Shown here in pieces: positions 12,111 to 39,908 of a stretch of DNA of 43,764 nt. Source of the stretch: Bacteroidales bacterium. GTDB taxonomy: Bacteria; Bacteroidota; Bacteroidia; Bacteroidales; JAAUTT01. A program made the translations under genes and the position numbers. The notes beneath the pieces were generated by a model. The model was not told the DNA's origin. It ran no database searches and saw only the letters and a list, made by a program, of their open reading frames with translations. Location of the stretch: assembly GCA_025350365.1 (NCBI GenBank), contig JANXXY010000224.1, forward strand, positions 1-43,764, in the 5' to 3' direction. Within the stretch, counting starts at the first letter, position 1; every line of letters begins with the position of its first letter.

Positions 12111-12346
12111 GGGTTCAGTCGGAAATGTTAGGGACTGCAAGACAAACAATTAAATCCGCAATGCATTAAACTGTAATTTCTAATGCTTTACAAAGTTAAT
12201 AATAAAATCCTCTACTGCCCCCTTGTTATAAGAACCTCAAATTCAATATTTATCTGTATTTTTTTAATGCTTCCCAAAAAAAATGTGCGATAAATTACCA
12301 ACCTTCTAACATTTTTGCCGTGTAAGTTTCCATAAATAAAAAGCTT

Positions 12347-12679: not shown

Positions 12680-12721
12680 TACTCTTCAGCTAGTAAAATG
12701 GGATTGTAAATTATAATTAAA

Positions 12722-17613: not shown

Positions 17614-17668
17614 TTGCTAAATAAATAAAGTCTTTAATTATAATTTACTAACGATAAAACTATTTACT

Positions 17669-19270: not shown

Positions 19271-19323
19271 CGATAGCAAAAATTAATATAGCAATATAAA
19301 ATTATACTATAAAAATAATCAAT

Positions 19324-21762
19324 ATGAAATTTGGCCACTTCGACGACAAAAACAGGGAATATGTGATTGATAATCCACGTACACCTTGGCCTTGGATCAA
19401 TTATCTTGGAAATGAAGATTTTTTCTCACTTATTTCAAATACTGCCGGTGGTTATACTTTTTATAAAGATGCCAAATTCCGACGTATTACCCGCTATCGA
19501 TACAACAACGTACCGATGGATAGCGGAGGAAAATACTTTTACATTAAAGACGGAGACAGCATATGGTCGCCGGGTTGGAAACCATGCAAAACAGAACTCG
19601 ACAGTTATGAATGTCGTCATGGGATGAGCTACACCAACATTAAAGGCGAGAAGAATGGTGTTACAGCCAATGTTCTCTATTTTGTACCACTAAAAACGTG
19701 GGCAGAAATACAAAAACTTACATTAACCAATAATTCAAATGAAGTTAAGAAATTAAAGATTTTTTCTTTTGTTGAATGGTGTTTGTGGAATGCAGCCGCC
19801 GATATGGAAAACTTTCAACGAAACTTCTCAACCGGTGAAGTGGAAATTCAGGATTCTGTTATCTACCACAAAACCGAATATAAAGAGCGACGAGATCATT
19901 ATGCGTATTATTCCGTAAATACTCCTATACATGGTTATGATACTGATCGTGAATCATTTTTTGGTTTATATAATGGTTTCGATGAACCACAAGTTGTTGC
20001 AGAAGGCAAGCCTCTTAATTCAGAGGCACATGGTTGGTCACCTATCGCATCCCATTACATCGAAGTAGAATTGAAACCAGGCGAATCGAAAGATTTTATC
20101 TATGTTTTGGGCTATGTCGAAAACAAAGAAGAGGAAAAATGGGAATCGAAGAATATTATCAATAAGAAAAAAGCGAAGGAAACCATAGCGAAGTTTAATA
20201 CTGTCGCAAAAGTAGATACCGCATTAGCAGAATTGCGTAAATACTGGGATAACTTATTAAGTATTTATTCGGTTAACTCAGGAGATGATAAACTCGACCG
20301 CATGGTAAATATTTGGAATCAATATCAATGCATGATTACCTTTAATTTTTCCCGTTCGGCATCCTTCTTCGAATCGGGTATTGGTCGTGGTATGGGTTTC
20401 CGTGATTCAAATCAGGATCTTATTGGTTTTGTTCACCAGATTCCGGAAAGGGCGCGGGAGCGAATTATCGATATTGCTTCCACCCAATTTCCCGACGGAG
20501 GTTGCTATCATCAATACCAGCCACTTACCAAGCGGGGTAACAATGATATTGGAGGAGGTTTTAACGATGATCCCATGTGGCTTATCCTTGGCACGGTCAG
20601 CTACATAAAAGAAACAGGGGATTATGGTATTCTGGATGAAAAAGTTCCTTTTGACAATGATATATCTATTTCACGTAGTTTATTTGACCACCTTACGGTA
20701 TCGTTCGACCATGTAGTAAAAAATCTTGGACCTCACGGATTACCGCTTATAGGTCGTGCCGACTGGAACGATTGCCTCAATCTGAATTGTTTTTCCAACG
20801 ATCCTAACGAGTCGTTCCAAACTACAGAAAATAAAACAGTAGGCACCAAAGCGGAATCGGTGATGATTGCAGGATTATTCGTATTATATGGTCGTGATTA
20901 TGTTGATCTTTGCAAAAAACTAGGTAAAAATGACGAAGTTGTTCGTGCTCAAAAGCATGTGGATACTATGGTGGATGTAATTAAAAAACATGGTTGGGAT
21001 GGTGAGTGGTTTATTCGTGCTTACGACTATTATGGTCGTAAAATCGGGAGTAACGAAAACGAAGAAGCTAAAATATTTATCGAATCGCAGGGATGGTGCA
21101 CAATGGCGGGCATTGGCAAAGATGAAGGCCTTTGCACCAAATCGCTTGATGCAGTAAAGGAACGGCTTGATAGTCAATATGGGATAGTATTAAATAACCC
21201 TGCATTTACTAAATACTACATCGAATACGGCGAAATATCTTCTTACCCAGCTGGTTATAAGGAAAATGCCGGTATTTTCTGCCATAATAATCCTTGGATT
21301 ATGATTGGCGAAACAGTGGTAGGAAATGGAAACCGTGCCTGGGATTATTATCGTAAAATCTGTCCTTCCTACCTTGAAGAAATCAGTGATCTGCATAAAA
21401 CCGAGCCTTATGTATACGCTCAAATGGTATCCGGAAAGGATGCTTTCAAACCTGGGGAAGCTAAAAACTCCTGGTTAACCGGTACTGCGTCCTGGAATTT
21501 CTTTGCTATTTCACAATATATCCTCGGTATACGTCCCGATTATGATGGATTGATAATTGATCCCTGTATCCCTGCTGATTGGAAAGGGTTTAAAGTTACC
21601 CGTAAATTTCGCGGCGCTACCTACCTGATTGAAATTACAAACCCCAATGGTAAAATGAAAGGTGTAAAAGAGGTTTTGATCGATTCCAAACCGCAGGCTT
21701 CCAATATTATCCCTATATTTGGGGATGGCAGGGAACATACGGTAAAGGTGATTTTGGGATAA
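19324..21762 (+). CDS. cbpA: GH94 cellobiose phosphorylase
   Basis: [39 protein letters not shown] (catalytic Asp), [22 protein letters not shown]; 812 aa. Confidence 0.92.
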
Positions 21763-21769
21763 TCGTTTT

Positions 21770-21796
21770 GTAGAGACAACGCATGCATTGTCTCTA
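21770..21796. repeat. GTAG-type REP palindrome, copy 1
   Basis: GTAGAGACAACGCATGCATTGTCTCTA immediately after the GH94 stop. Confidence 0.85.
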
Positions 21797-21840
21797 ATGT
21801 CTATAAATTATCATCGGATAATTTTAAAAATATAATCCAC

Positions 21841-21907
21841 ATTGCAGCAAATTTGCAAGCCAATACGAGCCAACGCTGAAACTAAAGGCTTGCAAAAGAG
21901 CTGCAAT
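21841..21907. other. Bulged stem-loop element upstream of the hsdM remnant
   Basis: ATTGCAGC/GCTGCAAT (8 bp) and TTTGCAAGCC/GGCTTGCAAA (10 bp) stems separated by a 3x3 internal loop. Confidence 0.6.
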
Positions 21908-21992
21908 TTTGCTTTCACAAATCGTGTCGATATTGACAATTAAAAACATAAAGTTGTTAACTATAAAACAGATAAAAAATTAAAAGTATATA

Positions 21993-22253
21993 ATGGCTAA
22001 AAAAGCAAAAACAAAACAGGAAGAACCATTGAAGATTTACCCGGCTTCTGCAAGTTATCAACTATAGAAGTTTTGGCAAAATCAAATTATGCCAACTGGC
22101 AGATATTTGGGCATATATGACGCAGAAGATGATTTCAATTTTGTGGAACGCTTTACTTCTTTAAAAACAGAACTGGAAAGTCAAATTGCCGAAGAAGCAG
22201 ACTTGAATAAAAAAATTGCTGAGAATTTATCTAAAATAAAATTACCTAAGTAA
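21993..22253 (+). pseudogene. hsdM: Type I restriction-modification HsdM remnant (N- and C-termini joined by a deletion)
   Basis: MAKKAKTKQEEPL joined out of frame to EDLPGFCK...NYA, then TGRYLG...EDDFNFVERFTSLKTELESQIAEEADLNKKIAENLSKIKLPK*. Confidence 0.75.
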
Positions 22254-22651
22254 TGGCAATGGAAATAGTAAAACAAGCAATGTCGGTGTTTGAACAGATA
22301 CGGCAAACCGATGAAAACGGAAATTAATTCTGGGTAGCACGTCAATTGACTAAGGTGCTCGAATATACCGATTTCAGAAATTTTCTTTCGGTAATTGAAA
22401 AAGCCAAAGAAGCTTGTAAAAATAGTGGACAGGAGGTCGAACATCACCTCGTTGAATTCAACGAGGTGATAACTCACGGGAAAGGTGCTGTACAAGTTTA
22501 CCAAAGTTATAAATTGAGTCGTTATGCCTGTTACTTAATTGTACAAAATGCCGACCCATCAAAAGAAATAGTTGCGTTGGGGCAGACCTATTTTGCCGTG
22601 CAAACACGTTTGCAGGAAATACGACAGATGGAAAACTGTAAAATTCCCTGA
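22253..22651 (+). pseudogene. dinD: DNA-damage-inducible protein D (BRO-N-like), nonsense-mutated and truncated
   Basis: FEQIRQTDENGN*FWVARQL..VLEY, LSRYACYLIVQNADPSKEIVALGQTYFAVQTR; TAA at 22325-22327. Confidence 0.88.
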
Positions 22652-22665
22652 TTTAACGGGTTTAA

Positions 22666-22697
22666 TTGTAGAGACAACGCATGTGTTGTCTCTACAA
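22666..22697. repeat. GTAG-type REP palindrome, copy 2
   Basis: TTGTAGAGACAAC-GCATGT-GTTGTCTCTACAA, perfect 13 bp stem; may also terminate the convergent GH1 transcript. Confidence 0.85.
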
Positions 22698-22700
22698 AAC

Positions 22701-24119
22701 CTATTTCAGAAAATTGCGAAACCATAACCCAGAATCTTTAATGGTACGTTTTTGAGTTTCAAAATCATTATAAACAATGCCAAAACGAGGTTTATAGCCG
22801 TAACTCCATTCAAAATTGTCCATAAAGGTCCACAAAAAATATCCTGTCACATTTATTCCCTCGCATTTTGCCTTTAATACACTTTTGAGGTAATCCTTAA
22901 AATAGTTACATCGCTGGGTATCATGAACGCTTTCACCTTGAAGCTCATCAGGAAAGGCGGCTCCGTTTTCGGTTATAATAATTTCTTTAATCGGATATTT
23001 GGCATATTGCTTAATACTCATGTAAATACCTTTTGGCCAAACTTCCCAGCCCATTTCGGTAAGTTCTGATTTTTCCTTATCGGGTTTTACCTTGGTTGCC
23101 CGGATATAGGGAATAATTCCAGGTCGGCTTATTACCCGGAAATAATTCTGCAAGCCAATAAAATCGAAGTCGAATTTAAGCCTTTCCTCATCACCGGGTT
23201 GAATAAACCTTTCCATTTTTTCCAGAAAGGGGAGATCTTTTTTGGGATAACCCATCCCAAGAGTAGGTTCAATATAAAGCCTGTTAAGAATTACATCAAT
23301 TCGTTTGGCGGCCCTTTCATGTCGTGGCAATTGCTTTTTAGGCTCTACATAGGAGCATGAGAGCGCTGTTCCGATATGGGCATCCGGCAGATGACTGCGA
23401 ATAATTCGACCTCCTTCGGCCTGACAAAGCATTGCATGATGTACAGAAGCAAGAAATTTATTTATTCCCCGATGCCCGGGGGCATGCATGCCAATAAGGT
23501 ATCCTAGTGTAGTAAAAGCCGCCGGTTCATTTAACACAATCCAATTTCGAACCCGGTCGCCGAATTTTTGAACGCAAAAATCAGTATATTCAGCAAACCA
23601 ACCAATAATGTCGCGGTTTGTCCATCCACCTTTATCTTCCAACAGTTGAGGTAAATCCCAATGGTAAAGAGTAATCCATGGTTCGATACCAATGCGGAGA
23701 CATTTGTCTATTACCCGGTTGTAAAAATCAACTCCCTTATCATTAATTCTTCCTGTTCCGTCGGGTAGCAAACGCGACCAGGAAAGTGAGAAGCGGAAAT
23801 CTTTAAAATTCAGACTTTTCAACAAGTCCAAATCGTTATCGAATTGGTGATAAAAGTCGCAGGCAATCTGGCCGGTGGAATGGTCTTTTATTTTCCCCTT
23901 CATCATTTCAAAACGATCCCATATATTTTCACCCTTTCCGTCAACATTCCATGCGCCCTCAATTTGATGAGATGCTGTTGAAACGCCCCAATGAAACGCG
24001 GAACCGAATAATTCTTTTGATAGTTCAGGGTCTGGTTGATTTGCTTTCGATAAGAGGGAGCCGGAATATAAAAAAGCAGTTCCTGCACTGGCTAATTTCA
24101 AAAATTCAGAACGTTTCAT
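22701..24119 (-). CDS. GH1 beta-glucosidase with a Tat-like signal peptide
   Basis: WGVSTASHQIEGA, RFSLSWSR, TLYHWDLP, catalytic NEP and ITENG, DNFEW..GY..RFG; TACCTTTG box at 24134-24141 on the minus strand. Confidence 0.95.
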   Translation of the reverse strand: MKRSEFLKLASAGTAFLYSGSLLSKANQPDPELSKELFGSAFHWGVSTASHQIEGAWNVDGKGENIWDRFEMMKGKIKDHSTGQIACDFYHQFDNDLDLLKSLNFKDFRFSLSWSRLLPDGTGRINDKGVDFYNRVIDKCLRIGIEPWITLYHWDLPQLLEDKGGWTNRDIIGWFAEYTDFCVQKFGDRVRNWIVLNEPAAFTTLGYLIGMHAPGHRGINKFLASVHHAMLCQAEGGRIIRSHLPDAHIGTALSCSYVEPKKQLPRHERAAKRIDVILNRLYIEPTLGMGYPKKDLPFLEKMERFIQPGDEERLKFDFDFIGLQNYFRVISRPGIIPYIRATKVKPDKEKSELTEMGWEVWPKGIYMSIKQYAKYPIKEIIITENGAAFPDELQGESVHDTQRCNYFKDYLKSVLKAKCEGINVTGYFLWTFMDNFEWSYGYKPRFGIVYNDFETQKRTIKDSGLWFRNFLK

Positions 24120-27235: not shown

Positions 27236-28117
27236 ATGACGATAACCAGCCTTGATTTGCAACAGTTTATAACTGCTCTAAGAAATTTTTCAACTTATGA
27301 CTTCAGCGAATACTCTGACAAGTCTTTAAAGCGAAGACTAACTAAGGTATTGATTGACTACAAACTTGAATTGGGTGAGTTGATTTCTCAAATGCGAAAC
27401 AATACTCAATTGCTTGAACAAGTAGTTAAAGACATCACTGTAAATACTACCGAACTATTTCGCGACCCTCTGGTATGGCAGCATTTGCGTTATACAATAC
27501 TTCCGAAACTTAAAAATCAACAAACCATTAATATCTGGCATGCAGGATGTTCTACCGGGCAGGAAGTGTATTCCATGATGATGATTTTGAATGAACTTGA
27601 TCTTTTAGAACGCACAAGGATATATGCCAGTGATTTAAATACCGATGTTCTTCAAGCTGCAAAAAAAGGACTATATAAATACCGGTTTAATATCGCATAC
27701 CTAGATAATTTCGACAAAGCGATAAAAGAAAATCCTTTTAATTACGAGCAGTTTTTTGATATTCCTTATTCAAAGTATTTTGAAATAGACAAGGAGAAAG
27801 ATTTTATAAAAATGAATCACTTTCTCACTGAAAAACCAATTTTTAAAAAACTTGATTTAGTTAAGGATAGTAATATTTTTTATGTGAAATTCGATATTAT
27901 CATTTGTAGGAATGTAATTATCTATTTTAATTACGATCTGCAAAATAAAATATTTGAATTGTTTCATAACAATCTGTACAGTAATGGTTATTTATGGCTT
28001 GGCATGCATGAATCCATTCTGGGCCCTTTTGCATCAAAATTTGAAAAAATCGGGCATGTTTATCAAAAAAAGGAAAGTCTGTTTTCGAGTATCGATTATG
28101 GGAAATTGAATAAATAA
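27236..28117 (+). CDS. cheR: CheR-type protein-glutamate O-methyltransferase (motifs intact)
   Basis: YDFSEY...SLKRR, TVNTTELFRD, IWHAGCSTGQEVYS, ASDLN, FDIIICRNVIIYF, GYLWLGMHES. Confidence 0.95.
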   Translation: MTITSLDLQQFITALRNFSTYDFSEYSDKSLKRRLTKVLIDYKLELGELISQMRNNTQLLEQVVKDITVNTTELFRDPLVWQHLRYTILPKLKNQQTINIWHAGCSTGQEVYSMMMILNELDLLERTRIYASDLNTDVLQAAKKGLYKYRFNIAYLDNFDKAIKENPFNYEQFFDIPYSKYFEIDKEKDFIKMNHFLTEKPIFKKLDLVKDSNIFYVKFDIIICRNVIIYFNYDLQNKIFELFHNNLYSNGYLWLGMHESILGPFASKFEKIGHVYQKKESLFSSIDYGKLNK

Positions 28118-28221: not shown

Positions 28222-30909
28222 ATGATAAGAATTAATCAAAGTATAAAATCAAGACTTCTTCTCTTTACAGGAACTATTGTTTTCCTTTTTGGACTGTTCT
28301 TTATTTTTTTATACAATGATTTTTTCTTCGCTCGCAGAACTATTGAATTCTATAACCGGATAAATATTCTAAATTCTGCACCCGGTCAATTGACTTTGCT
28401 TCATAACTCATTTGTTACGAACGAAATTATAAATGAACGGTATTATTTAACGGGGAAAAGCAAATTACTTGATAGTATATTTAGTACTTCAGAACTATAT
28501 CAAAAGCAACTTGATAGTTTAAATTACCTTCCATATTTTTCACCTCAAGTCGTTACCAGAACTCAAATCAAAGGACTCATTACTCAATGCAAAAAACTTA
28601 GTGATATTTATATTATTCTTAACCAACAAATTATTGGGCGTGGGTATTTGAAAACCGGTGAGGCCGGGGAAGTTGATAGGTTTATAAACTTTTTTATAGA
28701 ATTTGCTGTTGCTGAGAACAATCCAATTCTTATGAAATCTATTGTTGAAATCAATAGAATTCAATCCGCTTATCAATTGGGAAAAACTAACGATCACATT
28801 CAACTTCTTTTCGATAGGGTAGATGCTCTCAAAGTTCTTCTTTCCATAAATGATGTCAAACTTTGCAATGGAATGACAGAGATAAACCGCATGAGGCTTA
28901 TCAAGGAGTTAGAATCATTTGCGGCTCTTATTGGAGAATTACAAAAAACTGACATTAAAATTGGATTTTCTGGTGGTCAGGGAACGATAGGTGATGCCCA
29001 ACTCAAACTCGAAATAATAGGCGATAAATCGCAAAACATTTATAAGGAAATAAAAAATGAGGTCGGTCAGCAAATATTCATTCAGTTTATAATTAAAACA
29101 TCATTGTTAATTATTCTGTTATTATTTTATTTGTGGTTTCTACTTCGATTTTCAAGGACTGTAACATTTGCAATACAACAAATTAAAAATTTTGCTTCGG
29201 AACTGGTTCTGGGAAAATTGCCGAATCCTTTGGAACTTAGTGCATGTGATGAATTAATCTCCATATCAGAACTATCAAATAATTTTGCGAGTAGTTTACG
29301 CGAAAAGATTCATTTTGCGACTAATCTTGGCTCGGGGAAAACGAATGTGACCATGTTACCTCTTAGTGAGGAAGATACAATGGCTAATGCATTGTTAAAC
29401 ATGGAGAAAAGTCTTAAAAAAGCCGTTGAGGAAGATCAGAAATATAAAATTGAAGAGCAAAAACGTGCCTGGACCAATGAAGGACTTGCAAAATTCGGTG
29501 AAATCCTCAGAATGCAAACAGACAATTTGGCGACTTTGTCAGATTCCGTCATTGCTAATCTTGTTAAATACCTTAATGCCAATCAGGGAGGTATTTTTCT
29601 TTACAACAACGATGATAAATCAGACATACATCTGCAACTTATATCGGCATTTGCTTTTGATCGCAAAAAATACCTTACAAAACGAATTGAACTTGGCGAA
29701 GGGTTGATAGGCACTTGTGCCCTCGAAAGGCAAACCATTATAATTACTGATGTCCCAGAAGGATATATGGAAATCACCTCGGGTTTGGGAGAAGCTCCTC
29801 CCCGAAGTATTTTAATTGTTCCATTGCGATCCGAAGAAGTGATTTTTGGTGTTCTGGAAATTGCATCACTTAACTTTTTTCAGCCTCATGAAATAGATTT
29901 TGTTGAAAAAATTGCTCAAAGTACCGCTTCAACTTTTGATACTGTAAAAATTAATATCAACACGTCACGATTATTGGAACAGTCCAAAAAACAAGCTGAA
30001 GAAATGGCGCAACAGGAAGAAGAAATGCGTCAAAACCTTGAAGAATTGCAAGCTACACAGGAAGAATCGGAACGCCGTGAAGCAGAAATCAACAGTTTGT
30101 TAGTGGCCGTGGATGCTTCAGCTTTGGTTATCCAAACTGATATGGAAGGCCGGATAATGGAGGTTAATAAAAAGTTCTCTTTTATCGTAAAAAAACATCG
30201 CGACGAGCTAATTGGAACGTATTTGAGAAATATCTTCACTTTCAATGTCGAGATTGACGAATATTACAATTTATTGCTCGATTTGAAACAGGGTAAATTA
30301 ATCAATCGTAACGAAATATTGGATTTTGAGGATGGAAGTAAAGTTTACCTGGTTTTAAATTATTCTCCAATTCTTGATCGAGACGGGAAACCATATAAAG
30401 TTTTAGGAATTGCTACCAACATTACCGATAAAATAGTACTCGAAAATTCAATCTCCAAAAAAGATATCGAGTTAGGTGAAATGGAATTTCATCTCACTCA
30501 TTTTGATCAACTTATTGATTCAGGATTTATTAGAAGCGAATTATCCGCCGAGTGTATTCTGATGAAGGCAAATGATAACTTTACAGAGGTAACCGGTTAT
30601 ACATCAAAAGAATCCATTGGTAAAGATTATCGAAAGTTTTTAAAACCCGATGAATTAAAGCAATTTGAATTGATTTGGAACGAAGTTCTGAAAGATAAAC
30701 CATACAAAGCAGTTGTTAAAAGGACAATGCCGGCAGGCGATGAGCACTGGTTAATGGCCAGTTTCATACCTTTTAAAAACAAATCAGGAAAAATTACTAA
30801 AGTTATTCTGGTTGCGCAAGATATTACGGAAAAGAAATTAAAATACCAGGTTTTAGAAGAGGCTAATAAAGAGATTGAGCGACTCAAAGGAATGCAAAAT
30901 CAAAGCTGA
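28222..30909 (+). CDS. Membrane sensor: TM, periplasmic region, TM, HAMP-like, GAF, coiled coil, two PAS/PAC; no enzymatic output domain
   Basis: Two TM helices; GAF motifs GEGLIGTCALE and ILIVPL; QQEEEMRQNLEELQATQEE; PAS/PAC motifs DMEGRIMEVN, YSPILDRDG, ANDNF..VTGY, QDITEKK. Confidence 0.88.
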   Translation: MIRINQSIKSRLLLFTGTIVFLFGLFFIFLYNDFFFARRTIEFYNRINILNSAPGQLTLLHNSFVTNEIINERYYLTGKSKLLDSIFSTSELYQKQLDSLNYLPYFSPQVVTRTQIKGLITQCKKLSDIYIILNQQIIGRGYLKTGEAGEVDRFINFFIEFAVAENNPILMKSIVEINRIQSAYQLGKTNDHIQLLFDRVDALKVLLSINDVKLCNGMTEINRMRLIKELESFAALIGELQKTDIKIGFSGGQGTIGDAQLKLEIIGDKSQNIYKEIKNEVGQQIFIQFIIKTSLLIILLLFYLWFLLRFSRTVTFAIQQIKNFASELVLGKLPNPLELSACDELISISELSNNFASSLREKIHFATNLGSGKTNVTMLPLSEEDTMANALLNMEKSLKKAVEEDQKYKIEEQKRAWTNEGLAKFGEILRMQTDNLATLSDSVIANLVKYLNANQGGIFLYNNDDKSDIHLQLISAFAFDRKKYLTKRIELGEGLIGTCALERQTIIITDVPEGYMEITSGLGEAPPRSILIVPLRSEEVIFGVLEIASLNFFQPHEIDFVEKIAQSTASTFDTVKININTSRLLEQSKKQAEEMAQQEEEMRQNLEELQATQEESERREAEINSLLVAVDASALVIQTDMEGRIMEVNKKFSFIVKKHRDELIGTYLRNIFTFNVEIDEYYNLLLDLKQGKLINRNEILDFEDGSKVYLVLNYSPILDRDGKPYKVLGIATNITDKIVLENSISKKDIELGEMEFHLTHFDQLIDSGFIRSELSAECILMKANDNFTEVTGYTSKESIGKDYRKFLKPDELKQFELIWNEVLKDKPYKAVVKRTMPAGDEHWLMASFIPFKNKSGKITKVILVAQDITEKKLKYQVLEEANKEIERLKGMQNQS

Positions 30910-30920
30910 ACAAAATTGAT

Positions 30921-31745
30921 ATGCTGGAATTAGGAATAGTTGAGACAAGGAATATTATTAAAACTATATTAGAAAAGTACAATTACGACTTTTCTGATTA
31001 TTCTTTGACGTCATTCAAACGCCGGCTTGAGAAGATAGTAGATCAGCAAAACCTGAAAAATGTCGATCAGCTGATAATAAAATTGCGAGACAATAATAGT
31101 TATTTTGAACAATTTCTTAATGAATTGGCAACACCATCAACAGAAATGTTTCGTGATCCTTCATTGTGGCGTATTTTAAGGGATGAACTATTGCCTTCAT
31201 TAATAAGCGATTTGGGGTCAAATCTAAAAATATGGCTTCCAAATTCAGTTTCTGGCGACGAACTTTTTTCACTGGTAATTACACTACATGAATTGAATCA
31301 GCTTAATAAAGTTCAAATATATGTTTCCTCTTTAAGTACCGTGTCTCTTGATACTATTAGATCAGGCTTGTTGCTTGCCAGTAAACTTGATTTAAGTGCT
31401 GATAATTATATTCGTGCCAATGGAACTGAGGTTTTCCCGAATTATTATAAAATGGAAAACAATGCCATATATAGAGATACTTCATTAATAAAGAACGTTA
31501 TTTTTTCACGGCAAAACTTGAGTTTGGACCCTCCGGTTCAAGGGATTAAACTTGTTTTGTTCCGAAATAAAATGGTATACTACAATCAAACTCTTCAAAG
31601 TAAGGTTTTAAGACAATTGTTTAGTTCTTTGGTACCAAATGGATACTTAATTGTAGGTGCCAAGGAATCGATAAATACCCTCTATGGGAACAACGAATTT
31701 TCATTAATCAATAATTCTGAAAGTATCTATAAGCGCAAACCATGA
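30921..31745 (+). CDS. cheR: CheR-like protein with degenerate SAM-binding motifs
   Basis: YDFSDYS..SFKRR and TEMFRDP retained; IWLPNSVSGDE, SSLS and LVLFRNKMVYY replace the canonical motifs. Confidence 0.85.
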   Translation: MLELGIVETRNIIKTILEKYNYDFSDYSLTSFKRRLEKIVDQQNLKNVDQLIIKLRDNNSYFEQFLNELATPSTEMFRDPSLWRILRDELLPSLISDLGSNLKIWLPNSVSGDELFSLVITLHELNQLNKVQIYVSSLSTVSLDTIRSGLLLASKLDLSADNYIRANGTEVFPNYYKMENNAIYRDTSLIKNVIFSRQNLSLDPPVQGIKLVLFRNKMVYYNQTLQSKVLRQLFSSLVPNGYLIVGAKESINTLYGNNEFSLINNSESIYKRKP

Positions 31746-32299
31746 TTTATAAAGCAATTATGATAGGCGGATCGGCCGGAAGTTTTCAGGTAGTAACGAA
31801 AATATTAAGTGCTTTGCCAAAGACACTGAATATGCCTCTGTTTTTATGTCTTCATCGGCTAAAGCATGTTCGGTCCGGTTTTCTTGAAGCTTTGTCACTG
31901 AAATCAAATCTTCCGGTTATAGAACCTGACGACAAAGAACAAATTAAACCTGGAAGGGCTTACCTTGCACCTGCAAACTATCATATGTATATTGAACTTG
32001 GAAATAGAATTGCATTGTCTACGGAGGAGCCTGTAAACCATTCGCGGCCATCCATCGATCTTTCGTTTGTTACTGCAGCGCATGCTTACCGCGAAAAACT
32101 CATTGGGATTATTCTGTCTGGCGCTAATAGCGACGGAGCTTACGGGCTAAAAAAAGTGAAAGACTTAAATGGCTTTACAATTGTTCAGGATCCTAATGAA
32201 TGCCAGGTTCGAACGATGACTGAAGCGGCCATGAAAAGCACAAACGTAGATCAGGTTTTATCGACTGACCAGATTATTAAATTTTTACTAAAATTATAA
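31742..32299 (+). CDS. cheB: CheB-type methylesterase, catalytic domain only
   Basis: GGSAG (Ser), CLHR (His), YLAPANYH, SRPSID, LSGANSDG (Asp); 185 aa, no receiver domain. Confidence 0.95.
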   Translation: MIYKAIMIGGSAGSFQVVTKILSALPKTLNMPLFLCLHRLKHVRSGFLEALSLKSNLPVIEPDDKEQIKPGRAYLAPANYHMYIELGNRIALSTEEPVNHSRPSIDLSFVTAAHAYREKLIGIILSGANSDGAYGLKKVKDLNGFTIVQDPNECQVRTMTEAAMKSTNVDQVLSTDQIIKFLLKL

Positions 32300-32312: not shown

Positions 32313-33077
32313 ATGAAAATGAACCTTTCTTATAAATATCTTAACCTGATTATTTTTCTGCTTATAGTGGCGGTAGTATTCGCTCTTTTTGGTGTGATTA
32401 ATAATATATCCAATGATAATTCAGATAAAATTACATTTGCGTACATTCTGCTTTTTGCAATTCTTTTTCTCATTGTTGTCTGGTTTTTAGTTACATTAAA
32501 AATAGGAAGAATATCCAATGACATTTCGTTGTCCGATAACGCTGATCATGAAATTTTAAATAACACGAGTAATTTCATGTCTAACGACAAAGAGGAAATT
32601 CGTGCAAATAAAAATGAAATTGATGTTTCCCGGATAATTCCAGATAATTGCAAGTCGGTCGAAGAGTTTTCAGAGCATATCCTTCAGAATTTAGCTCAGG
32701 AATTTAATATCGTTCAAGCTTTAATGTATTTGAAAACAGCCGATACCGACAATTACGAATCAATTGCTCAGTATGCTTATTTTTCTGAATCAAAGCCACA
32801 AGCCTTTAAGGCCGGCGAAACATTGCCCGGTCAGGCAATTAAAAACAGAACTATTGTTATGTTAACCGATGTACCTGAAAACTATTTGACCATTGCTTCA
32901 GGATTAGGAAAAAGTGGCATCAAATATTTGGTATTTGTGCCGCTGATTCACAATGATGATGTTGTTGGATTGATCGAATATGCAACTTTTACCCAGATAA
33001 ATGAAGATATAATCAAAATGCTGGGCAATATTGCAGATTTGGTTGCTGAAACTATTGTTAAACTCATAAAAAAGTAA
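32313..33077 (+). CDS. Two-TM membrane protein with a single GAF domain
   Basis: Two TM helices; GETLPGQA, VPENYLTIASGLG and LVFVPL...VVGLIE align with the neighbouring GAF domains. Confidence 0.85.
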   Translation: MKMNLSYKYLNLIIFLLIVAVVFALFGVINNISNDNSDKITFAYILLFAILFLIVVWFLVTLKIGRISNDISLSDNADHEILNNTSNFMSNDKEEIRANKNEIDVSRIIPDNCKSVEEFSEHILQNLAQEFNIVQALMYLKTADTDNYESIAQYAYFSESKPQAFKAGETLPGQAIKNRTIVMLTDVPENYLTIASGLGKSGIKYLVFVPLIHNDDVVGLIEYATFTQINEDIIKMLGNIADLVAETIVKLIKK

Positions 33078-33086: not shown

Positions 33087-35702
33087 ATGCCGGTAAAGGT
33101 GAACTATATCCTTGATAACGCAAAAGCTCGGGCTGTAATAATCGGAGTGGCAGTGAGCATTGTTGTTCCTGTTATTGCATGGATGATGGATATCATTGTG
33201 GCCGGCCGGATGCTGAGCTTAACAACTCTATTGCAAATACATATCAATCATCCGAGTCTGTTTTTTGTTGATTTAATACCAATTGCTTCCGGAATAATTA
33301 TCTATTTTATAATAAGTATTCGGGAAAAGGATAAGGACTTCTACGAGGGAAAAATCATTAAAAGAGATCACCGCATTAATAAAAACGCCTCATTCGCAAA
33401 ACAAATAGGTGAAGGAGATTATACCAGCCCGTTTGAACCATCGGGTAGTGACGATGCATTAGGCGAATCGTTGCTTTTAATGCGCGATAACCTGATTTTA
33501 AATACCCGCAAAGAAGCTGAACAGAGCTGGATTGCTGCAGGAAAGGAACAAATTTCGAATGTGCTTCGAATTCATAACAAAATTGACGTTCTGGCAAATG
33601 AGACATTGGTTTCACTTACAAAATATATCAATGCCGTTCAGGGCGCATTCTATTTGTTTGAATCGGATAGACAGGTGCTTATAAATATTGCCACTTATGC
33701 TTTTAACCGTAAAAAATTTGTAAATCAGGAGTTTCAGGTAGGTGAGGGGCTGATAGGTGAGTGTGCCTATGAAATGGATCTTATTTATCGTACCGAAATA
33801 CCTGAAGATTATGTTACTATCACCTCGGGTATTTTAGGTGACAAGCGGCCAAAAACAATTCTAATTGTGCCCTTGGTATCAGACGAAAACCTGCAAGGTG
33901 TTATAGAATTTGCGTTTTTACTCGATGAGCTTCCTGCTCTAACGCTTCATTTTATGAAGGAGTTAGGAGAAATTATTGCTCGCACAATTTTTAACCTTCG
34001 TGTAAACGAAAAAACCGAACGTTTGCTTGAGGAGTCGCGCCAAATGACGGGTGAACTTATGGAGAACGAAGAACAACTGCGGCAAAGTGCGGAAGAAATG
34101 CGTGCTACTCAGGAAGAACTACAACGCTCCAACGAAAAACTCGAAGGCCAAATTAACGAAGTCGAAAATGCCCAAAAACGTCTTCATTCGCTTCTCCAAA
34201 ATGCATCCGAAATTATTTTTATTTACGATGAAAGTTTAAATCTGGCATATATTAGTCCTTCAGTTTCCGGCATTTTGGGATTTACACCCGATGAGATGAT
34301 GAAAGGTAAGGATTTTGACCGTCTTACCCGCAAGGGTGAAGTTGAACTCCGGTCCATGTTTAGCCGCTTGCTTGAAAGGCCGGCCGAACCTATTACAATC
34401 CAGTACACTTACATGAAAAAGGATGGACAAAAAATTTTCCTCGAAACTACGGGAAGAAACCTTTTGGCCGACCCTGCACTTCATGGAATCATCCTAAATT
34501 CGCAGGATATAACCGAACGAAAACGAGCAGAAAAAGAAGAGCGGATGAAAAGCAAAATGCAATCCCTCTCTGAGAACTCTCTCGATTTGATTATACGATT
34601 AAATATGCATGGTATGTTTTTCTATGCCAATCCGGTAGTTGAAGATTATATTGGCATAAAAAGTTCTGAAATTTTGAATAAAACTATTCAGGATACTGAG
34701 ATGCCGCCAAATTTGCTTTCCTATTTTCAAACAACCCTCATAGAAGTTAAAGCCTCCCCGCAAAAACGGAATAATCAGATTTCCATTTCAATTCAACTTG
34801 GCGAAAAGATGGCAGAAAGAATCATTAGTCTTGATGCCATACCGGAATTTAATGAAAATGAGCTGGAAACTATATTATTTGTTGGTCATGATATAACTGA
34901 GGCTAAACGTATTGAATTAGAAATTGCCGATAAAAATAGGAAGATCGAGGATAGCATCAACTATGCTCAGCGCATCCAGTCCGCCATTCTTCCCGATAAT
35001 GCATTTATTCGCGATTACCTGCCAAAATCGTTTATTTTTTACAAACCACGCGATGTTGTCAGCGGAGATTTTCCATGGTTCTTTAAACGCGATGATACTT
35101 TATATATTGCAGTAGTGGATTGCACAGGTCACGGTGTGCCCGGCGCGTTGCTTTCATTTGTTGGTTATTTTATTCTTAATAATGTAGTTGACCATGAACG
35201 GGATTATACCGCTGCCGAAGTTTGCGATCTGTTACATAATGGAGTACGTCAAACACTTAAGCAAAATCGCGAAGATGCTCAAGGTCGTGACGGCATGGAT
35301 ATCGCCCTGGTGAAATATAACCCGAAGAAAAACGAAATACATTATGCCGGCGCTCATCGCCCTCTATATTTCTTACGTAATGGTGAATTGACCGAATATA
35401 AGGGTGACAGAAAAGCTATCGGTGGTATCCCTTTGGGGAGTAAACCTGAAAAGAACTTCACTAATTATGTTATTCCCGTGGAAACTGGTGATAAAGTGTT
35501 TTTCTTCTCCGATGGTTTAACTGATCAACTGGGAGGTACCGAATTTAAAAAGTTTTCACCGGCACGCGTGCGGGATATGATCTCACAAAATTCAAATAAT
35601 ACAATGGAAGACTATCATCAATTATTTGATAAAGATTTTTTTGCATGGAAGGGTAACGAAAAGCAAATAGATGATGTTTTATTAATCGGAATAGAATTTT
35701 AA
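33087..35702 (+). CDS. Membrane GAF-coiled coil-PAS-PAS-PP2C (SpoIIE/RsbU-type) phosphatase, SiaA analogue
   Basis: SINYAQRIQSAILP, VSGDF, VVDCTGHGVPGA, FSDGLTDQ, QIDDVLLIG; GAF and PAS motifs upstream. Confidence 0.93.
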   Translation: MPVKVNYILDNAKARAVIIGVAVSIVVPVIAWMMDIIVAGRMLSLTTLLQIHINHPSLFFVDLIPIASGIIIYFIISIREKDKDFYEGKIIKRDHRINKNASFAKQIGEGDYTSPFEPSGSDDALGESLLLMRDNLILNTRKEAEQSWIAAGKEQISNVLRIHNKIDVLANETLVSLTKYINAVQGAFYLFESDRQVLINIATYAFNRKKFVNQEFQVGEGLIGECAYEMDLIYRTEIPEDYVTITSGILGDKRPKTILIVPLVSDENLQGVIEFAFLLDELPALTLHFMKELGEIIARTIFNLRVNEKTERLLEESRQMTGELMENEEQLRQSAEEMRATQEELQRSNEKLEGQINEVENAQKRLHSLLQNASEIIFIYDESLNLAYISPSVSGILGFTPDEMMKGKDFDRLTRKGEVELRSMFSRLLERPAEPITIQYTYMKKDGQKIFLETTGRNLLADPALHGIILNSQDITERKRAEKEERMKSKMQSLSENSLDLIIRLNMHGMFFYANPVVEDYIGIKSSEILNKTIQDTEMPPNLLSYFQTTLIEVKASPQKRNNQISISIQLGEKMAERIISLDAIPEFNENELETILFVGHDITEAKRIELEIADKNRKIEDSINYAQRIQSAILPDNAFIRDYLPKSFIFYKPRDVVSGDFPWFFKRDDTLYIAVVDCTGHGVPGALLSFVGYFILNNVVDHERDYTAAEVCDLLHNGVRQTLKQNREDAQGRDGMDIALVKYNPKKNEIHYAGAHRPLYFLRNGELTEYKGDRKAIGGIPLGSKPEKNFTNYVIPVETGDKVFFFSDGLTDQLGGTEFKKFSPARVRDMISQNSNNTMEDYHQLFDKDFFAWKGNEKQIDDVLLIGIEF

Positions 35703-35732: not shown

Positions 35733-36317
35733 ATGGGCACAAATGAAAAGAAGGATGTAAGAGGATTCCTCGAATTTGTATATGAGTTTTATAAATCAAT
35801 GAAGGAACATGAGATTACGCTGGTATACGAGGGTGAAATAACACACCAAATAACAAAAGCCTTCACTTCTCTTACCGAATCTAATATGGCAAAAGAAGAA
35901 GAGTCTAATTTAGTTCAAAAAAAGGTTTTTCATGTGATGGTTGAATGTTTACAAAATATCAGCAAACACGCCGATGATTATGGCGCTAACGATTATTTGT
36001 TTTCCGGAAGAGGCATATTTTTAGTTTCGAAAGGGAAAGATGAGTATTCCGTTACTACAGGCAACGCAATTGACCACACCCGTATGCCGGAATTGAAACG
36101 TATGCTTGAACAAGTAAATAGTCTGGATAAAGAAGAACTTACCGAACTTTACAAGAAACAGATTAAGGAAGGCAGATTGTCCGATAAGGGAGGTGCCGGA
36201 TTAGGCTTTATTGATATTAAGCGGAAAACCGGGCGTAATCTTGAGTATCACTTTTTGCCTATAAACGATGTCTCATCGTTCTTTTTATTAACATCAACTA
36301 TTTCACGAAATGCTTAA
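35733..36317 (+). CDS. siaB: SiaB-family (DUF6272) GHKL protein kinase
   Basis: LVYEG, KKVFHVMVECLQNISKH, TGN, GGAGLGFIDI.RK; adjacent to a SiaC-like gene. Confidence 0.87.
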   Translation: MGTNEKKDVRGFLEFVYEFYKSMKEHEITLVYEGEITHQITKAFTSLTESNMAKEEESNLVQKKVFHVMVECLQNISKHADDYGANDYLFSGRGIFLVSKGKDEYSVTTGNAIDHTRMPELKRMLEQVNSLDKEELTELYKKQIKEGRLSDKGGAGLGFIDIKRKTGRNLEYHFLPINDVSSFFLLTSTISRNA

Positions 36318-36341: not shown

Positions 36342-36719
36342 ATGGAAGTTTTCAAAATTTTGGGTACTGACGATACCCCTGGTGTAACGCTGGATGCGGC
36401 TAACGACATATTTGAAATTTCAGGTCGGTCGCTACCGGAGGATGTAAATGCATTTTACAAACCTATTATTGATTGGATGGATAAGTACAACTTGGCTCCA
36501 AAAGCAAAAACCATCTTTTATTTCAGATTGGTTTATTTTAATACTGCTTCGTCAAAGATGTTACTCGATGTTCTTATGAAATTGGAGGAACTCTATAAAT
36601 CAGGGAATGATGTTGTTGTTCGGTGGCAATATCCTGATGATGACGAAGATATGAAAGAGGCTGGCGAGGAATATGCTGACATTGTTGACGTTCCATTCGA
36701 GCAAATTGAAATATCCTGA
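36342..36719 (+). CDS. siaC: SiaC-family (DUF1987) phosphoprotein
   Basis: TP.V, ISGRSLPED...FY.PI..W, YFNTASSK (Thr68), W.Y..DDEDM.EAGEEY. Confidence 0.9.
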   Translation: MEVFKILGTDDTPGVTLDAANDIFEISGRSLPEDVNAFYKPIIDWMDKYNLAPKAKTIFYFRLVYFNTASSKMLLDVLMKLEELYKSGNDVVVRWQYPDDDEDMKEAGEEYADIVDVPFEQIEIS

Positions 36720-36833: not shown

Positions 36834-39800
36834 ATGAGTGAAGAGATTTTAAAAGCGTTAATGCAACTGTTTGCGATTATTGCTAAACAGGACGAGGGTG
36901 TGGAACTTAGCGAGCGTGAGTACGTTAAAACCTTTTTGACCCTTCAACTGAGTGATGAAGCCGTAAACGAATATTTGATTCTGTTTGATAGTTTTGCAGG
37001 TCTTGATAAAACTGTTGACGAAAACGGTGTTGAGATTGCAAGGAAAAAACTGACTTCTGTTAAAGATTCGGTTCGTATTCTGGGTATTTGTAAAAAAATC
37101 AACAAAACACTTACTCAGGAACAAAAAGTAGTAGTCTTGGTTCGACTTTTTGAGTTGGTAAATGCGGACCGTAAATTTACCGATCAGCGAATGGCTATCA
37201 TCAATACGGTGGCCGAAGTTTTTAATCTTCCCAGAGAAGAATTTAAAAGCATTGAGACTTTTGTAGTTAAAAACCGACCTGAAGCGCTTGATCAACCTGA
37301 TGTTTTAGTTATTGCCGATAAGCCTGTTGTAAACCTGCAAAGTAAATTTATTCTCACTGAAAAACTTGACGGCAACCTCTATATTCTCAGGATTGCCAGT
37401 GTTGATCTGTATTTTCTGAAATATACAGGGCATGAAGATCTATTTTTGAATGGCCTCGGAATTACCAATAGACGCATCTATTTATACGCCAGCGGAAGTG
37501 CCGTAAAAATGCCTAAAGGAAAGCCGGTTTATTACAGTGATGTTGTAGCGCACTACCTTGCTGATATTACTTCGAACAAAATATCATTCGAAGTGAATAA
37601 CCTCGAATTTCGATTCCCTAATGGAAATATTGGACTGCGAAACGTTAGCTTTTCTGAAGGTCAGGGAAAACTGATTGGTATTATGGGAGCCAGTGGAGCA
37701 GGTAAAACTACGTTGTTGAATGTATTATGCGGAACGGAGTTACCTTACAAAGGAGAAGTGATTATTAACGGTCACAATCTTCATAAAGAGAAAGATAAAG
37801 TGGAGGGAGTTATTGGTCTTATTCCTCAGGACGACCTTTTAATCGAAGAATTAACCGTTTTTGAAAATCTATATTATAACGCAAAACTGTGTTTTAAGAA
37901 CCAAACTGAAGAACAGATTAACGAACGTGTCGTTCGAACACTTTCAAGTCTTGGACTTTTAGAACGTAAGGATCTCAAAGTCGGATCGCCACTGAACAAA
38001 ACCATTAGTGGTGGACAACGGAAACGCTTGAATATCGCGCTTGAATTAATTCGCGAACCGTCTATCTTGTTTGTTGATGAGCCTACCTCCGGACTTTCGT
38101 CGAGAGATTCCGAAAACGTGATGGACTTATTACGGGAACTTGCATTGAAAGGAAAACTTATTTTTGTAGTAATTCACCAGCCGTCGTCGGAAATTTATAA
38201 GATGTTCGACAAAATGATTATCCTGGATACGGGAGGATACCTAATATATTATGGCAACCCAGTTGAAGCTGTGATGTATTTTAAAAGAATTGACGCTCAA
38301 ATTAACAGCAATGTAGGAGAGTGTCCCGTTTGTGGAAATGTGAATCCCGAACTTATTTTTAACATTATTGAAGCCAAGGTTGTTGACGAGTTTGGCAGGT
38401 ATACTGATAAACGCAAAGTACAACCGCCGAAATGGGAGGGATTTTACTCTGAAAATTTTCATCCTGAAAAGATGCAGGTAATCAGCGAGGATCCGCCAAA
38501 ATCATTAAATATCCCAAACTGGATCAACCAGATTAAGATTTATACAGTTCGTGATTTTGTTTCTAAAATAAGCAATACCCAATATATATCGCTTAATCTT
38601 CTGGATGCTCCCCTGCTGGGATTAATTCTTGCATATGTTATCAGGTATATTTCCGACCCGGGTTCGGATGTGTATATTTTTAGAGAAAATGAAAATATTC
38701 CGGTTTATATTTTCATGAGTCTCATTGTGGCTTTGTTTCTGGGCTTAATCGTTAGTGCCGAAGAAATATTTCGCGATCGTAAAATACTCAAACGCGAAGG
38801 TTTTCTTAATTTGAGCCGTTCAAGCTATCTATTATCTAAAATATTTATATTATTAGTAATTAGCGCTATACAAAGTTTAACATTTGTACTTATTGCGAAC
38901 TCAATTCTGGGAATTAACGGAATGTATTTTACGTACTGGTTTGCCCTATTCACTACGGCTGCTTTTGCTAACATGTTAGGGTTAAATGTTTCAGCTTCAT
39001 TTAATTCAGCTGTAACTATATATATTCTTATTCCACTGCTTATGATCCCTATGATGATCCTAAGCGGGGCAATGTTTCGTTTTGATAAACTTAACCGTAA
39101 TGTTGGTAGTGTGGATAAGGTTCCTCTGTTGGCTGAAATAATGGTAACTCGTTGGGCTTATGAGGCCTTGGTGGTTCATCAATTTAAAGACAATCAATTT
39201 GAAAAAGCATTTTACGATATTGAGAAACGTGAAAGCAACGCTGATTTTAAACAGGTGCATCTTATACCCGAACTTCAAAAACGACTGGACGATTGCAACG
39301 CTGAATTCTCAAAGTTTGGAAAAATAGAGAAAACCAATGTTCAGCTTGATGTTCTAAAGAACGAAATATCCAAAGAATTGATGATTAATATGGATCTTCC
39401 ATTTAAAAATGCAGATGGAATAATAGCTGAAAAATATAGTGCCAGGATGGCTAAAGCATTACAATCTTTTATTGATAGAATGAAAGCTGATTATTCAGGG
39501 AAATTTATGCAAGCCAACAAAGAAAAGGAAGATAAAATAAATAGAGAACTTAAAAAGGATCCTGAAAGATATAAGCAGTATAAAAACGTGTACCATAACG
39601 AAAATTTGTCGGATTTGGTGCGGAAAGTGCTTGAAAAAAATAAAATATTAGAATATAATCACGAATTGGTTCAGCAGGTAGATCCAATTTATATGGATCC
39701 TACCATTCGGGGACCTTTAAGTTTGCGATCTCATTTTTTTGCCCCTCGCAAACCATTTTTTGGCGTTTATTATGATACATACTGGTACAATATGATTGTA

Positions 39801-39908
39801 GTATGGTTATTTACTGTCATTCTTTATCTGGCTCTCTATTACGAGTGGTTTTTAAGATTTATGAATATGTTCGGAAAACTTAAACTTAAAAAGGAAAGTT
39901 CAGAATAA
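36834..39908 (+). CDS. ABCG-type (NBD before TMD) ABC transporter with an N-terminal TerB-like domain
   Basis: Walker A GASGAGKTT, ISGGQRKR, Walker B ILFVDEPT, IHQP, ABC-2-type TMD; helical N-terminus resembling TerB; CPVC at 38322-38333. Confidence 0.9.
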   Translation: MSEEILKALMQLFAIIAKQDEGVELSEREYVKTFLTLQLSDEAVNEYLILFDSFAGLDKTVDENGVEIARKKLTSVKDSVRILGICKKINKTLTQEQKVVVLVRLFELVNADRKFTDQRMAIINTVAEVFNLPREEFKSIETFVVKNRPEALDQPDVLVIADKPVVNLQSKFILTEKLDGNLYILRIASVDLYFLKYTGHEDLFLNGLGITNRRIYLYASGSAVKMPKGKPVYYSDVVAHYLADITSNKISFEVNNLEFRFPNGNIGLRNVSFSEGQGKLIGIMGASGAGKTTLLNVLCGTELPYKGEVIINGHNLHKEKDKVEGVIGLIPQDDLLIEELTVFENLYYNAKLCFKNQTEEQINERVVRTLSSLGLLERKDLKVGSPLNKTISGGQRKRLNIALELIREPSILFVDEPTSGLSSRDSENVMDLLRELALKGKLIFVVIHQPSSEIYKMFDKMIILDTGGYLIYYGNPVEAVMYFKRIDAQINSNVGECPVCGNVNPELIFNIIEAKVVDEFGRYTDKRKVQPPKWEGFYSENFHPEKMQVISEDPPKSLNIPNWINQIKIYTVRDFVSKISNTQYISLNLLDAPLLGLILAYVIRYISDPGSDVYIFRENENIPVYIFMSLIVALFLGLIVSAEEIFRDRKILKREGFLNLSRSSYLLSKIFILLVISAIQSLTFVLIANSILGINGMYFTYWFALFTTAAFANMLGLNVSASFNSAVTIYILIPLLMIPMMILSGAMFRFDKLNRNVGSVDKVPLLAEIMVTRWAYEALVVHQFKDNQFEKAFYDIEKRESNADFKQVHLIPELQKRLDDCNAEFSKFGKIEKTNVQLDVLKNEISKELMINMDLPFKNADGIIAEKYSARMAKALQSFIDRMKADYSGKFMQANKEKEDKINRELKKDPERYKQYKNVYHNENLSDLVRKVLEKNKILEYNHELVQQVDPIYMDPTIRGPLSLRSHFFAPRKPFFGVYYDTYWYNMIVVWLFTVILYLALYYEWFLRFMNMFGKLKLKKESSE

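Follow-up and report, generated by a model that had tools for sequence, protein, structure and literature searches.

A candidate methyl-accepting coiled coil in kinase-free GAF–PAS sensors encoded with CheR, CheB and a SiaA/SiaB/SiaC-type switch in Bacteroidota

Introduction

In chemotaxis, the textbook device for memory is reversible methylation of glutamate residues. For proteins other than methyl-accepting chemotaxis proteins (MCPs), such methylation has, to our knowledge, been shown experimentally only for the sensor kinase RsbK and its methyltransferase RsbM. Here we describe an operon on a Bacteroidales contig of 43,764 nucleotides (JANXXY010000224.1; the window), in which an output-less membrane sensor (28222–30909) is encoded between two cheR genes, cheR1 and cheR2, followed by cheB and by a SiaA/SiaB/SiaC-type switch, whose PP2C phosphatase sensor (33087–35702) contains a second copy of the same coil. 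Sequence comparisons lead us to propose, with moderate confidence, that the coil of the output-less sensor is a substrate of CheR1 and CheB, that is, a methyl-accepting-type coiled coil, which would probably provide a non-chemotaxis pathway with a chemotaxis-style memory.

Two groups of described proteins come closest. Methyl-accepting coiled-coil proteins (MAC proteins) were reportedly predicted from genomes by Wuichet and Zhulin in 2010. According to citing papers, CheB and CheR are domains of the protein itself in MAC1 and associated proteins in MAC2; MAC proteins are described there as combining receptor and kinase functions, and a 2022 preprint calls the class a genomic prediction that is experimentally uncharacterised. 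Judged by these descriptions, the window sensors resemble MAC proteins in being non-MCP proteins with MCP-like Glu-pair heptads in a coiled coil and, as for MAC2, in being encoded with separate CheR and CheB enzymes (in the order cheR, sensor, cheR, cheB). However, the kinase function described for MAC2 is absent in the window, one protein being output-less and the other ending in PP2C. In addition, the window coil follows a GAF domain and has a strict consensus of its own, QEEEMRQNxEELQATQEE, whereas MAC proteins feature EELQSTN repeats. A kinase-type MAC2-like gene is found elsewhere in the same genome, on contig C304.

The second group is the RsbK/RsbM system, where RsbM is presumably a CheR-type enzyme; the word CheR is missing from the text of PMC4574943. 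According to that report, Bacillus cereus RsbK has the architecture CHASE3-HAMP-GAF-S-helix-HK-CA-REC (S-helix, signalling helix), and RsbM, encoded beside RsbK, methylates the S-helix that follows the GAF domain in vitro, with 14C-labelled S-adenosylmethionine (SAM) as donor. RsbM is described as an orphan methyltransferase without a paired esterase, and deletion of CheB had no effect (PMC4574943). The window sensor shares the succession of GAF domain and signalling helix as well as the adjacent methyltransferase gene, and in the RsbK pathway, too, the last elements are a PP2C phosphatase and a partner switch (RsbV/RsbW/sigma-B). In contrast, RsbK is a hybrid kinase whose PP2C (RsbY) is a separate response regulator, while here the PP2C protein itself bears the coil, as do output-less receptors; by Pfam, the window sensors have no HK, CA or REC output. 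The window operon further differs in having CheB and a second, degenerate CheR. This likeness between the S-helix and the window coil is one of architecture, not of aligned sequence, and the RsbK architecture is nearly matched by the C304 kinase of the same genome.

No publication that connects a SiaABC-type switch or kinase-less GAF-coil-PAS sensors with CheR/CheB came to light in a search that most subscription journals lay outside. While the concept of a methyl-accepting coil (MAC, 2010) and the precedent of RsbK S-helix methylation are already in print, kinase-free MAC-like or RsbK-like sensors that would feed a SiaA/SiaB/SiaC switch, together with a conserved probable pseudo-CheR, appear to be new.

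Results

A heptad-phased coil joins the GAF and PAS domains of an output-less sensor

The sensor gene (28222–30909, plus strand) is a single open reading frame (ORF) of 895 residues. Its product consists of a transmembrane segment, an outer region of about 250 residues, a second transmembrane segment, a HAMP-like part, a GAF domain (residues 435–571), a coil and two PAS domains (633–736 and 777–870); the transmembrane and HAMP-like parts were assigned by eye from the sequence and were not called by Pfam, which has no match in the outer region either. The Pfam scan of this protein yielded no kinase (HisKA, HATPase), phosphatase, cyclase or MCPsignal domain. A preliminary description, drawn up from the DNA letters, had called the protein a non-MCP sensor with the motif EELQAT at 30040–30057 in its GAF–PAS linker. 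Both statements hold: PF00015 is unmatched, and translation together with the Pfam domain limits places the motif in the linker, as E607–T612. The span it had given to the linker, 29977–30090, begins correctly at residue 586 (residues 586–620: EQSKKQAEEMAQQEEEMRQNLEELQATQEESERRE), and its end overshoots the quoted string by three codons.

The linker (LLEQSKKQAEEMAQQEEEMRQNLEELQATQEESERREAEI) contains a coil module of 47 residues, T581–L627 (29962–30102), which scores 71.6 bits with the module profile. [EQ][EQ] pairs occur at residues 586/587, 593/594, 600/601, 607/608 and 614/615, at an exact spacing of seven, and one tryptic peptide of this region is QNLEELQATQEESER. By itself, the six-residue pattern [EQ][EQ]xxA[ST] is weak evidence and not beyond chance: it matches 58 times in the 4117 ORFs of at least 100 residues in this genome, and 7.4% of shuffled 47-residue linkers contain it. 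The heptad phasing exceeds chance, as five consecutive pairs at seven-residue spacing arose in 67 of 100,000 shuffles of the linker.

With the GAF-coil-PAS region as query, 5439 proteins were retrieved at E <= 0.001. Among the best 120 of these plus the query, EE[LMIV]x[AS]TxEE is exact in 101 of 121, the remaining 20 featuring near variants such as EELQATQDE, EELRTTQED and QELQDAQEE. The consensus over 47 residues is T..LLEQS..QAEEM..QEEEMRQN.EELQATQEE..R.E.E, and many homologues have two to four copies, each before a PAS domain. On these alignments, the module is a nearly invariant coil that connects GAF with the domain after it in a large sensor family of Bacteroidota. It travels with GAF rather than with PAS, because a 552-residue HAMP-GAF-coil protein of the same genome (contig C16, 5162–6820; locus L131) has the coil after its GAF domain and ends about 30 residues past the Glu-pair core, without a PAS domain. 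In the two window sensors, the coil presumably takes the form of a parallel coiled coil of two helices that bridges GAF and PAS.

The module shares the register of chemoreceptor methylation sites

In methylation sites of chemoreceptors, Glx–Glx pairs recur in a heptad register and are followed by a small residue and Ser/Thr; in Escherichia coli Tar, the pairs occupy heptad positions b and c, flanked by hydrophobic residues at a and d. The Glu pairs of the module are found at these same positions, again flanked by hydrophobic a and d. A comparison within the genome is possible, as a family search of the whole genome returned four MCPs, all on contigs other than the window's, with the predicted methylation regions AASTEEISSSMEEM, AATAEEVSSSMEQI, ASSTEEVSSSMEEM and AAAAEEMSSSAEEL. 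Their sites EEISSSMEE, EEVSSSMEQ and EEVSSSMEE can be set against EELQATQEE and EEMRATQEE of the modules, giving a common register of nine residues: E, E, hydrophobic, x, A/S, S/T, x, E, E/Q. The claim of the preliminary description that the motif is in the register of MCP methylation sites is therefore borne out by the organism's own chemoreceptors, whose methylation helices also have pairs seven residues apart. Beyond the register the two classes part: MCPs have the MCPsignal hairpin (PF00015), a four-helix bundle and coupling to CheA/CheW, and the coil proteins of the window are without these, the PP2C sensor, like the output-less one, having no PF00015 match in Pfam.

The pattern E[EQ][ILVM]x[AS][ST]xE[EQ], composed with both sequence sets in view, is matched 12 times among the 4117 ORFs, where composition predicts 0.11 matches. 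The 12 matches are confined to the four MCPs, four GAF-coil proteins (two in the window and one each on C379 and C16) and a CheB-CheR-coil-PAS fusion on C323.

The module is associated with CheR and CheB

The genome itself (G000, 3.53 Mb in 483 contigs, 36.5% G+C, 85% complete; the window is contig C156) is of Bacteroidales type and fragmented. Five of its ORFs carry a methyl-accepting-type coil, namely the four GAF-coil proteins and the C323 fusion; a first motif pattern scan missed the C16 module, which a profile search recovered. Three of the four GAF-coil proteins adjoin CheR and/or CheB: besides the two of the window, that of C379 follows a REC-CheB gene at the contig end, and the C16 protein has no CheR or CheB neighbour. 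Two further loci involve methyl-accepting-type architectures. On C304 (648–5861; L018), the genome's other CheR–CheB pair precedes a CHASE3-GAF-coil-HisKA-HATPase-REC-REC-REC kinase of 1198 residues, whose coil has xEELxxx heptads after ELAxQNxEKxxRAxEL repeats, and the C323 gene (353–3322; L019) encodes a textbook MAC1-type fusion of 990 residues, CheB-CheR-(EELQSTN repeats)-PAS_10-PAS. Stand-alone CheB genes were also seen in other company. On C407 (1–1735; L020), CheB follows a KaiC-type ATPase gene cut at the contig start, an unusual pairing in which the KaiC-type gene overlaps the stop-to-stop open frame of CheB by 20 bases; on C28 (2060–5158; L021), CheB follows a HisKA-HATPase kinase, with a Macro-domain gene on the opposite strand. 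In all, the genome has six CheB domains and four to five CheR.

In a phylum sample of 401 genomes, a strong module match (profile E <= 1e-7) was found in six (G000, G243, G111, G311, G359 and G077). Both CheR and CheB are present in all six, against a base rate of 210 of 401 genomes for CheR above the Pfam cut-off. Three of the six, G111, G311 and G359, are listed as 100% complete and matched neither MCPsignal nor CheW; in each, a sole full-length CheR, scoring above the Pfam cut-off by itself, and a sole CheB immediately adjoin the module-bearing open frame of 1126–1131 residues (1119 from the first ATG in G111). G311 has an additional short CheR-like fragment elsewhere, which scores 25.3 bits alone and 30.7 with neighbouring matches in frame. 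The checked gene order of G111 (CheR, CheB, a transmembrane GAF protein, a HAMP-GAF-coil-PAS-PAS-PP2C protein, SiaB-like, SiaC-like) corresponds to the right half of the window operon, with no second, output-less sensor in the cassette. The cassette recurs in G243, where it immediately follows a canonical che cluster (L130; G243:C1:2368000–2387500). In this upstream che cluster, between cheR and cheD, we also noted a 299-residue HATPase_c-only protein without HisKA (11345–12726, minus strand).

A scan of species genomes turned up 587 relatives, and the best 77 loci were taken for closer study, with CheR and CheB profiles built from the genome of the window. CheR and/or CheB occur within the fetched flanks of 20 of the 77, where a rough estimate of chance is about 2%. 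As in the window, an output-less sensor lies between CheR1-type and CheR2-type genes at L052, L054, L113 and L123; L053 and L055 have a single flanking CheR within the fetched contig. At the other loci, most module proteins are dCache-HAMP-GAF-coil-PAS proteins of 770–1100 residues that lack an output domain and often stand in tandem. Arrays in which three or four paralogues with the module, each of about 770–880 residues, follow one another were seen at L064, L066, L068, L076, L080 and L100, and one member each from L064 and L100 was assigned by Pfam as dCache-HAMP-GAF-coil(-PAS) with no output domain.

What about the genomes of loci without a neighbouring CheR? We searched 50 of them, 49 with neither enzyme at the sampled locus and that of L109, where CheB alone is present; L125–L128 were left out, as were L085, L100, L105 and L120, whose assemblies were already included. 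All 50 hold a CheR above the cut-off and also match CheR2 at E <= 1e-25. In 49 of them, a full-length CheR2-type gene is the best match (E 3e-35 or better), and in G412 the sole match is a partial one of CheR1 type. In many of these genomes, the CheR2-type match is on the same contig as a CheR1-type match, about 0.1 kb or about 2.5 kb apart; the spacing of about 2.5 kb, that of the window, occurs in at least 11 further genomes, whose intervening DNA was not fetched. Equal conservation of the motif in genomes lacking CheR, which the preliminary description had named as counter-evidence, was not encountered, as module-bearing genomes without CheR numbered 0 of 56. The picture of scattered module genes with one enzyme set resembles that of MCP genes served by one set of adaptation enzymes.

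One intact and one degenerate CheR, and a CheB without receiver

The preliminary description had placed the sensor gene between two cheR genes and its product as the likely substrate of both. The gene order stands: Pfam CheR matches the products of both cheR1 (27236–28117, plus strand; 130.4 bits, with CheR_N at 21.4 bits, below the cut-off of 27) and cheR2 (30921–31745, plus strand; 73.3 bits), a divergent paralogue, and cheB is next. The double substrate role stands in part. Aligned with B. subtilis CheR (5FTW), CheR1 retains IWHAGCSTGQEVYS, ASDLN and CRNVIIYF, where CheR2 has IWLPNSVSGDELFS, SSLS and FRNKMVYY. CheR2 thus reads PNSVSG for AGCSTG, and the Asp of A[ST]D and the Cys of CRN are gone. 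These places include the SAM-contacting residues of CheR. A quick tree of 54 CheR sequences from the loci studied, with support from the Shimodaira–Hasegawa-like approximate likelihood ratio test (SH-aLRT) only, separates CheR of che clusters (12 rows, support 100, SAM motifs intact), a CheR1-type clade (19 rows, support 88, or 99 with L098; motifs intact in 19 of 19) and a CheR2-type clade (19 rows, support 98; motifs degenerate in 19 of 19). CheR1 of the window falls in the CheR1-type clade. The CheR2-type clade holds CheR2 of the window, those of the L052–L123 loci and that of L130, always just upstream of cheB in the cassette.

CheR1 is probably an active methyltransferase and the sole credible one of the two, and CheR2 is probably a pseudo-enzyme whose activity has been lost; perhaps it serves as an adaptor or reader of the coil. 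As the CheR2 clade is without the SAM-binding motifs, the sensor is unlikely to be a methylation substrate of both enzymes, and what remains of the earlier claim is a candidate acceptor beside a CheR1 with intact motifs. G111 has a single CheR, its motifs intact, which groups as sister to the CheR2 clade (support 95). For this reason, CheR2 looks like the original methyltransferase of the cassette, which would have decayed after CheR1 arrived.

A CheR1-type enzyme proved unsuitable as a marker of module-bearing genomes. A stand-alone CheR with 34–45% identity to CheR1 occurs in about 30 of the 401 genomes, and among these a strong module occurs only in G243, G111, G311 and G359. Since most genomes with CheR1-type enzymes lack a strong module, these enzymes probably serve other partners as well, kinase-type MAC2 proteins like that of C304 being probable ones.

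CheB (31742–32299, plus strand; CheB_methylest, 167 bits over residues 6–181 of 185) consists of a methylesterase/deamidase catalytic domain and lacks a receiver. When it is aligned to the CheB structures 3SFT and 6YMZ, the Ser of GxSxG, the His and the Asp prove to be retained; we take these three to be the catalytic triad.

The PP2C sensor and a probable SiaA/SiaB/SiaC-type output

All genes of the operon are on the plus strand, in the order cheR1, sensor, cheR2, cheB, small GAF, PP2C sensor, SiaB, SiaC and TerB-ABCG. The small membrane GAF protein (32313–33077, 254 residues, without the coil) is a conserved member of the cassette, found in the same position in G111 (253 residues) and G243 (256 residues). 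The PP2C sensor (33087–35702) follows. It is a SiaA-like sensor phosphatase with transmembrane part, GAF, coil, PAS, PAS and PP2C (SpoIIE; 73.9 bits) by Pfam, which matches no HisKA or HATPase_c; NCBIfam SiaA scores 170 bits over its C-terminal 260 residues, below the equivalog cut-off. Its module (residues 310–356; 34014–34154) contains EEMRATQEE, and its triplet reads EEQ where the other sensor has EEE. The copy scored 41 and 53 bits in profile searches, the module of the sensor between the cheR genes scoring higher (71.6 vs 53 bits).

The next gene (35733–36317, plus strand) encodes a SiaB-family protein kinase (Pfam DUF6272, 138 bits; NCBIfam SiaB_fam_kinase, 167.4 bits, cut-off 85; PDB 6KKO chain A, E 1.1e-11), and the one after it (36342–36719) a SiaC-family phosphoprotein, the partner-switch protein (Pfam SiaC, 134.6 bits, cut-off 24.5; 6KKO chain C, E 4.3e-15). 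PP2C sensor phosphatase, SiaB kinase and SiaC phosphoprotein are the same set as in SiaABCD of Pseudomonas aeruginosa. The latter includes SiaD, whereas no GGDEF family of a SiaD-type diguanylate cyclase was found among the window ORFs scanned, 22701–43604, the rest of the genome not being searched for GGDEF. The abstracts on the P. aeruginosa system make no mention of CheR, CheB or a Glu-pair coil (PMC7647112, PMC8457831). Neither coil protein has a kinase domain, and the operon's output appears to be a SiaA/SiaB/SiaC-type partner switch.

The gene directly after that of the SiaC-like protein (36834–39908, plus strand) encodes a protein of 1024 residues in which an N-terminal TerB is fused to an ABCG-type transporter (Pfam TerB, ABC_tran, ABC2_membrane). 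By its position, the transporter is a possible target of the switch. In G111, the 3 kb fetched after the SiaC-like gene contain no TerB-ABCG-like gene of at least 110 residues on the same strand. Elsewhere in the window (16864–24119) lies a sugar-use cluster with a NUDIX/NrtR-like regulator, an MFS_2 transporter and a GH94 phosphorylase (812 residues), with a GH1 glycosidase on the opposite strand; it appears to be unrelated to the coil.

Discussion

The register of the Glu pairs, the occurrence of the module with CheR and CheB and the intact motifs of CheR1 lead us to favour, though not strongly, a role of the sensor coil as a CheR1/CheB substrate. The proposal of the preliminary description that the sensor is the likely substrate gains from the link of the module to CheR/CheB, and it loses its exclusiveness: because the PP2C sensor has the module too, and is conserved beside CheR and CheB in genomes without MCPs, the output-less sensor is one of at least two candidates.

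Several observations weigh against a methylated coil. In the module itself, the A and S/T positions are variable (AT, ST, TT, AV, AI, DA). The small residues that the Thermotoga maritima-type methylation consensus has at the fourth and third positions upstream of its Glu pair are absent. The nine-residue pattern that unites module and MCP sites is post hoc. CheB has no receiver domain by Pfam, and the usual phospho-feedback is consequently missing. Gene adjacency is not general, because 57 of the 77 module loci are without CheR or CheB within the fetched flanks, and adjacency failed as a predictor of motif conservation: the core is equally conserved in 87 non-adjacent and 28 adjacent distinct modules, all from loci retrieved through the motif itself, which makes its loss undetectable. 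MCPs are present in 45 of the 50 module-bearing genomes tested, as in the genome of the window. The co-occurrence of CheR with the module could therefore stem in part from ordinary chemosensory systems and from shared ancestry, the sampled genomes being mutually related and the counts ignoring this kinship. A complex prediction of CheR1 with two copies of sensor residues 568–642, which reached a score of 0.01 (mark, 0.32) in runs without controls, speaks neither way on binding.

Alternatively, the coil could be an ordinary S-helix that relays conformational change from GAF to PAS, with Glu pairs that serve dynamics or salt bridges, and CheR1 and CheB could act on MCPs or on another protein of the operon. 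We consider this rather unlikely. The loci without a neighbouring enzyme and their equally conserved motif speak for it, and the four MCPs of this genome, like those of most relatives, could accept the methyl groups. However, three complete genomes without an MCP or CheW match have CheR and CheB beside the module protein, the CheR1 and CheR2 clades stand apart from the CheR of che clusters and are always in the cassette, the nine-residue pattern is found, coil proteins aside, only in MCP sites, and not one of the 56 module-bearing genomes lacks CheR.

That only the PP2C sensor is a substrate, the output-less sensor having the module by descent, unmethylated, or acting as a decoy or dimerisation partner, strikes us as quite improbable: the minimal cassette of G111, free of MCPs, indeed has no second sensor, and in the third place of the EEE triplet (column -6), 21% of the 28 modules from loci with adjacent CheR/CheB have Gln, which does not rank among the four most frequent residues there in the 87 non-adjacent modules, but an output-less sensor is found between CheR1-type and CheR2-type genes at five loci (the window, L052, L054, L113 and L123), the same spacing recurs in at least 11 further genomes, and the module of the output-less sensor outscores the PP2C copy.

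How would a methyl-accepting coil operate in this pathway? From the anatomy and associations returned by the tools, we infer the enzyme–substrate relation and the steps that follow. CheR1 would transfer methyl groups from SAM to one or more surface Glu residues at heptad positions b and c, with E600/E601, E607/E608 and E614/E615 of the sensor and the equivalent pairs of the PP2C sensor as candidates. The receiver-less CheB would strip these methyl groups and may deamidate encoded Gln, as in the EEQ of the PP2C sensor. As in chemoreceptors, the level of methylation would alter helix packing or dynamics, and the altered helix could reset how membrane, HAMP and GAF input reaches the PAS domains. 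Output would run via the SiaA-like PP2C phosphatase, opposing the SiaB-family kinase on the SiaC-family phosphoprotein. The output-less sensor and its many paralogues in related genomes would be receptors feeding this switch, and CheR2, its SAM site lost, probably attaches to the coil in an adaptor or reader role instead of methylating it.

Taken as a whole, we tentatively picture a kinase-free counterpart of a chemosensory pathway. In this speculative scheme, many transmitter-less membrane receptors, built of a Cache or other sensor followed by HAMP, GAF, coil and PAS, and one PP2C hub would share a methyl-accepting coil whose mark CheR1 writes, the receiver-less CheB erases and the dead CheR2 reads or tethers, and the adapted signal would leave through SiaB and SiaC, possibly to the TerB-ABCG exporter, instead of through CheA and CheY.

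If methylation of the coil holds true, it would be a second case of Glu methylation outside MCPs, on kinase-less sensors that are very numerous in Bacteroidota, and, because CheB is present, a reversible one. The operon would also allow a concrete and inexpensive test of the MAC hypothesis, with a defined substrate of 47 residues, a single credible methyltransferase and a single esterase. It further hints at a way for output-less receptors to signal, and at a possible role for a conserved pseudo-CheR.

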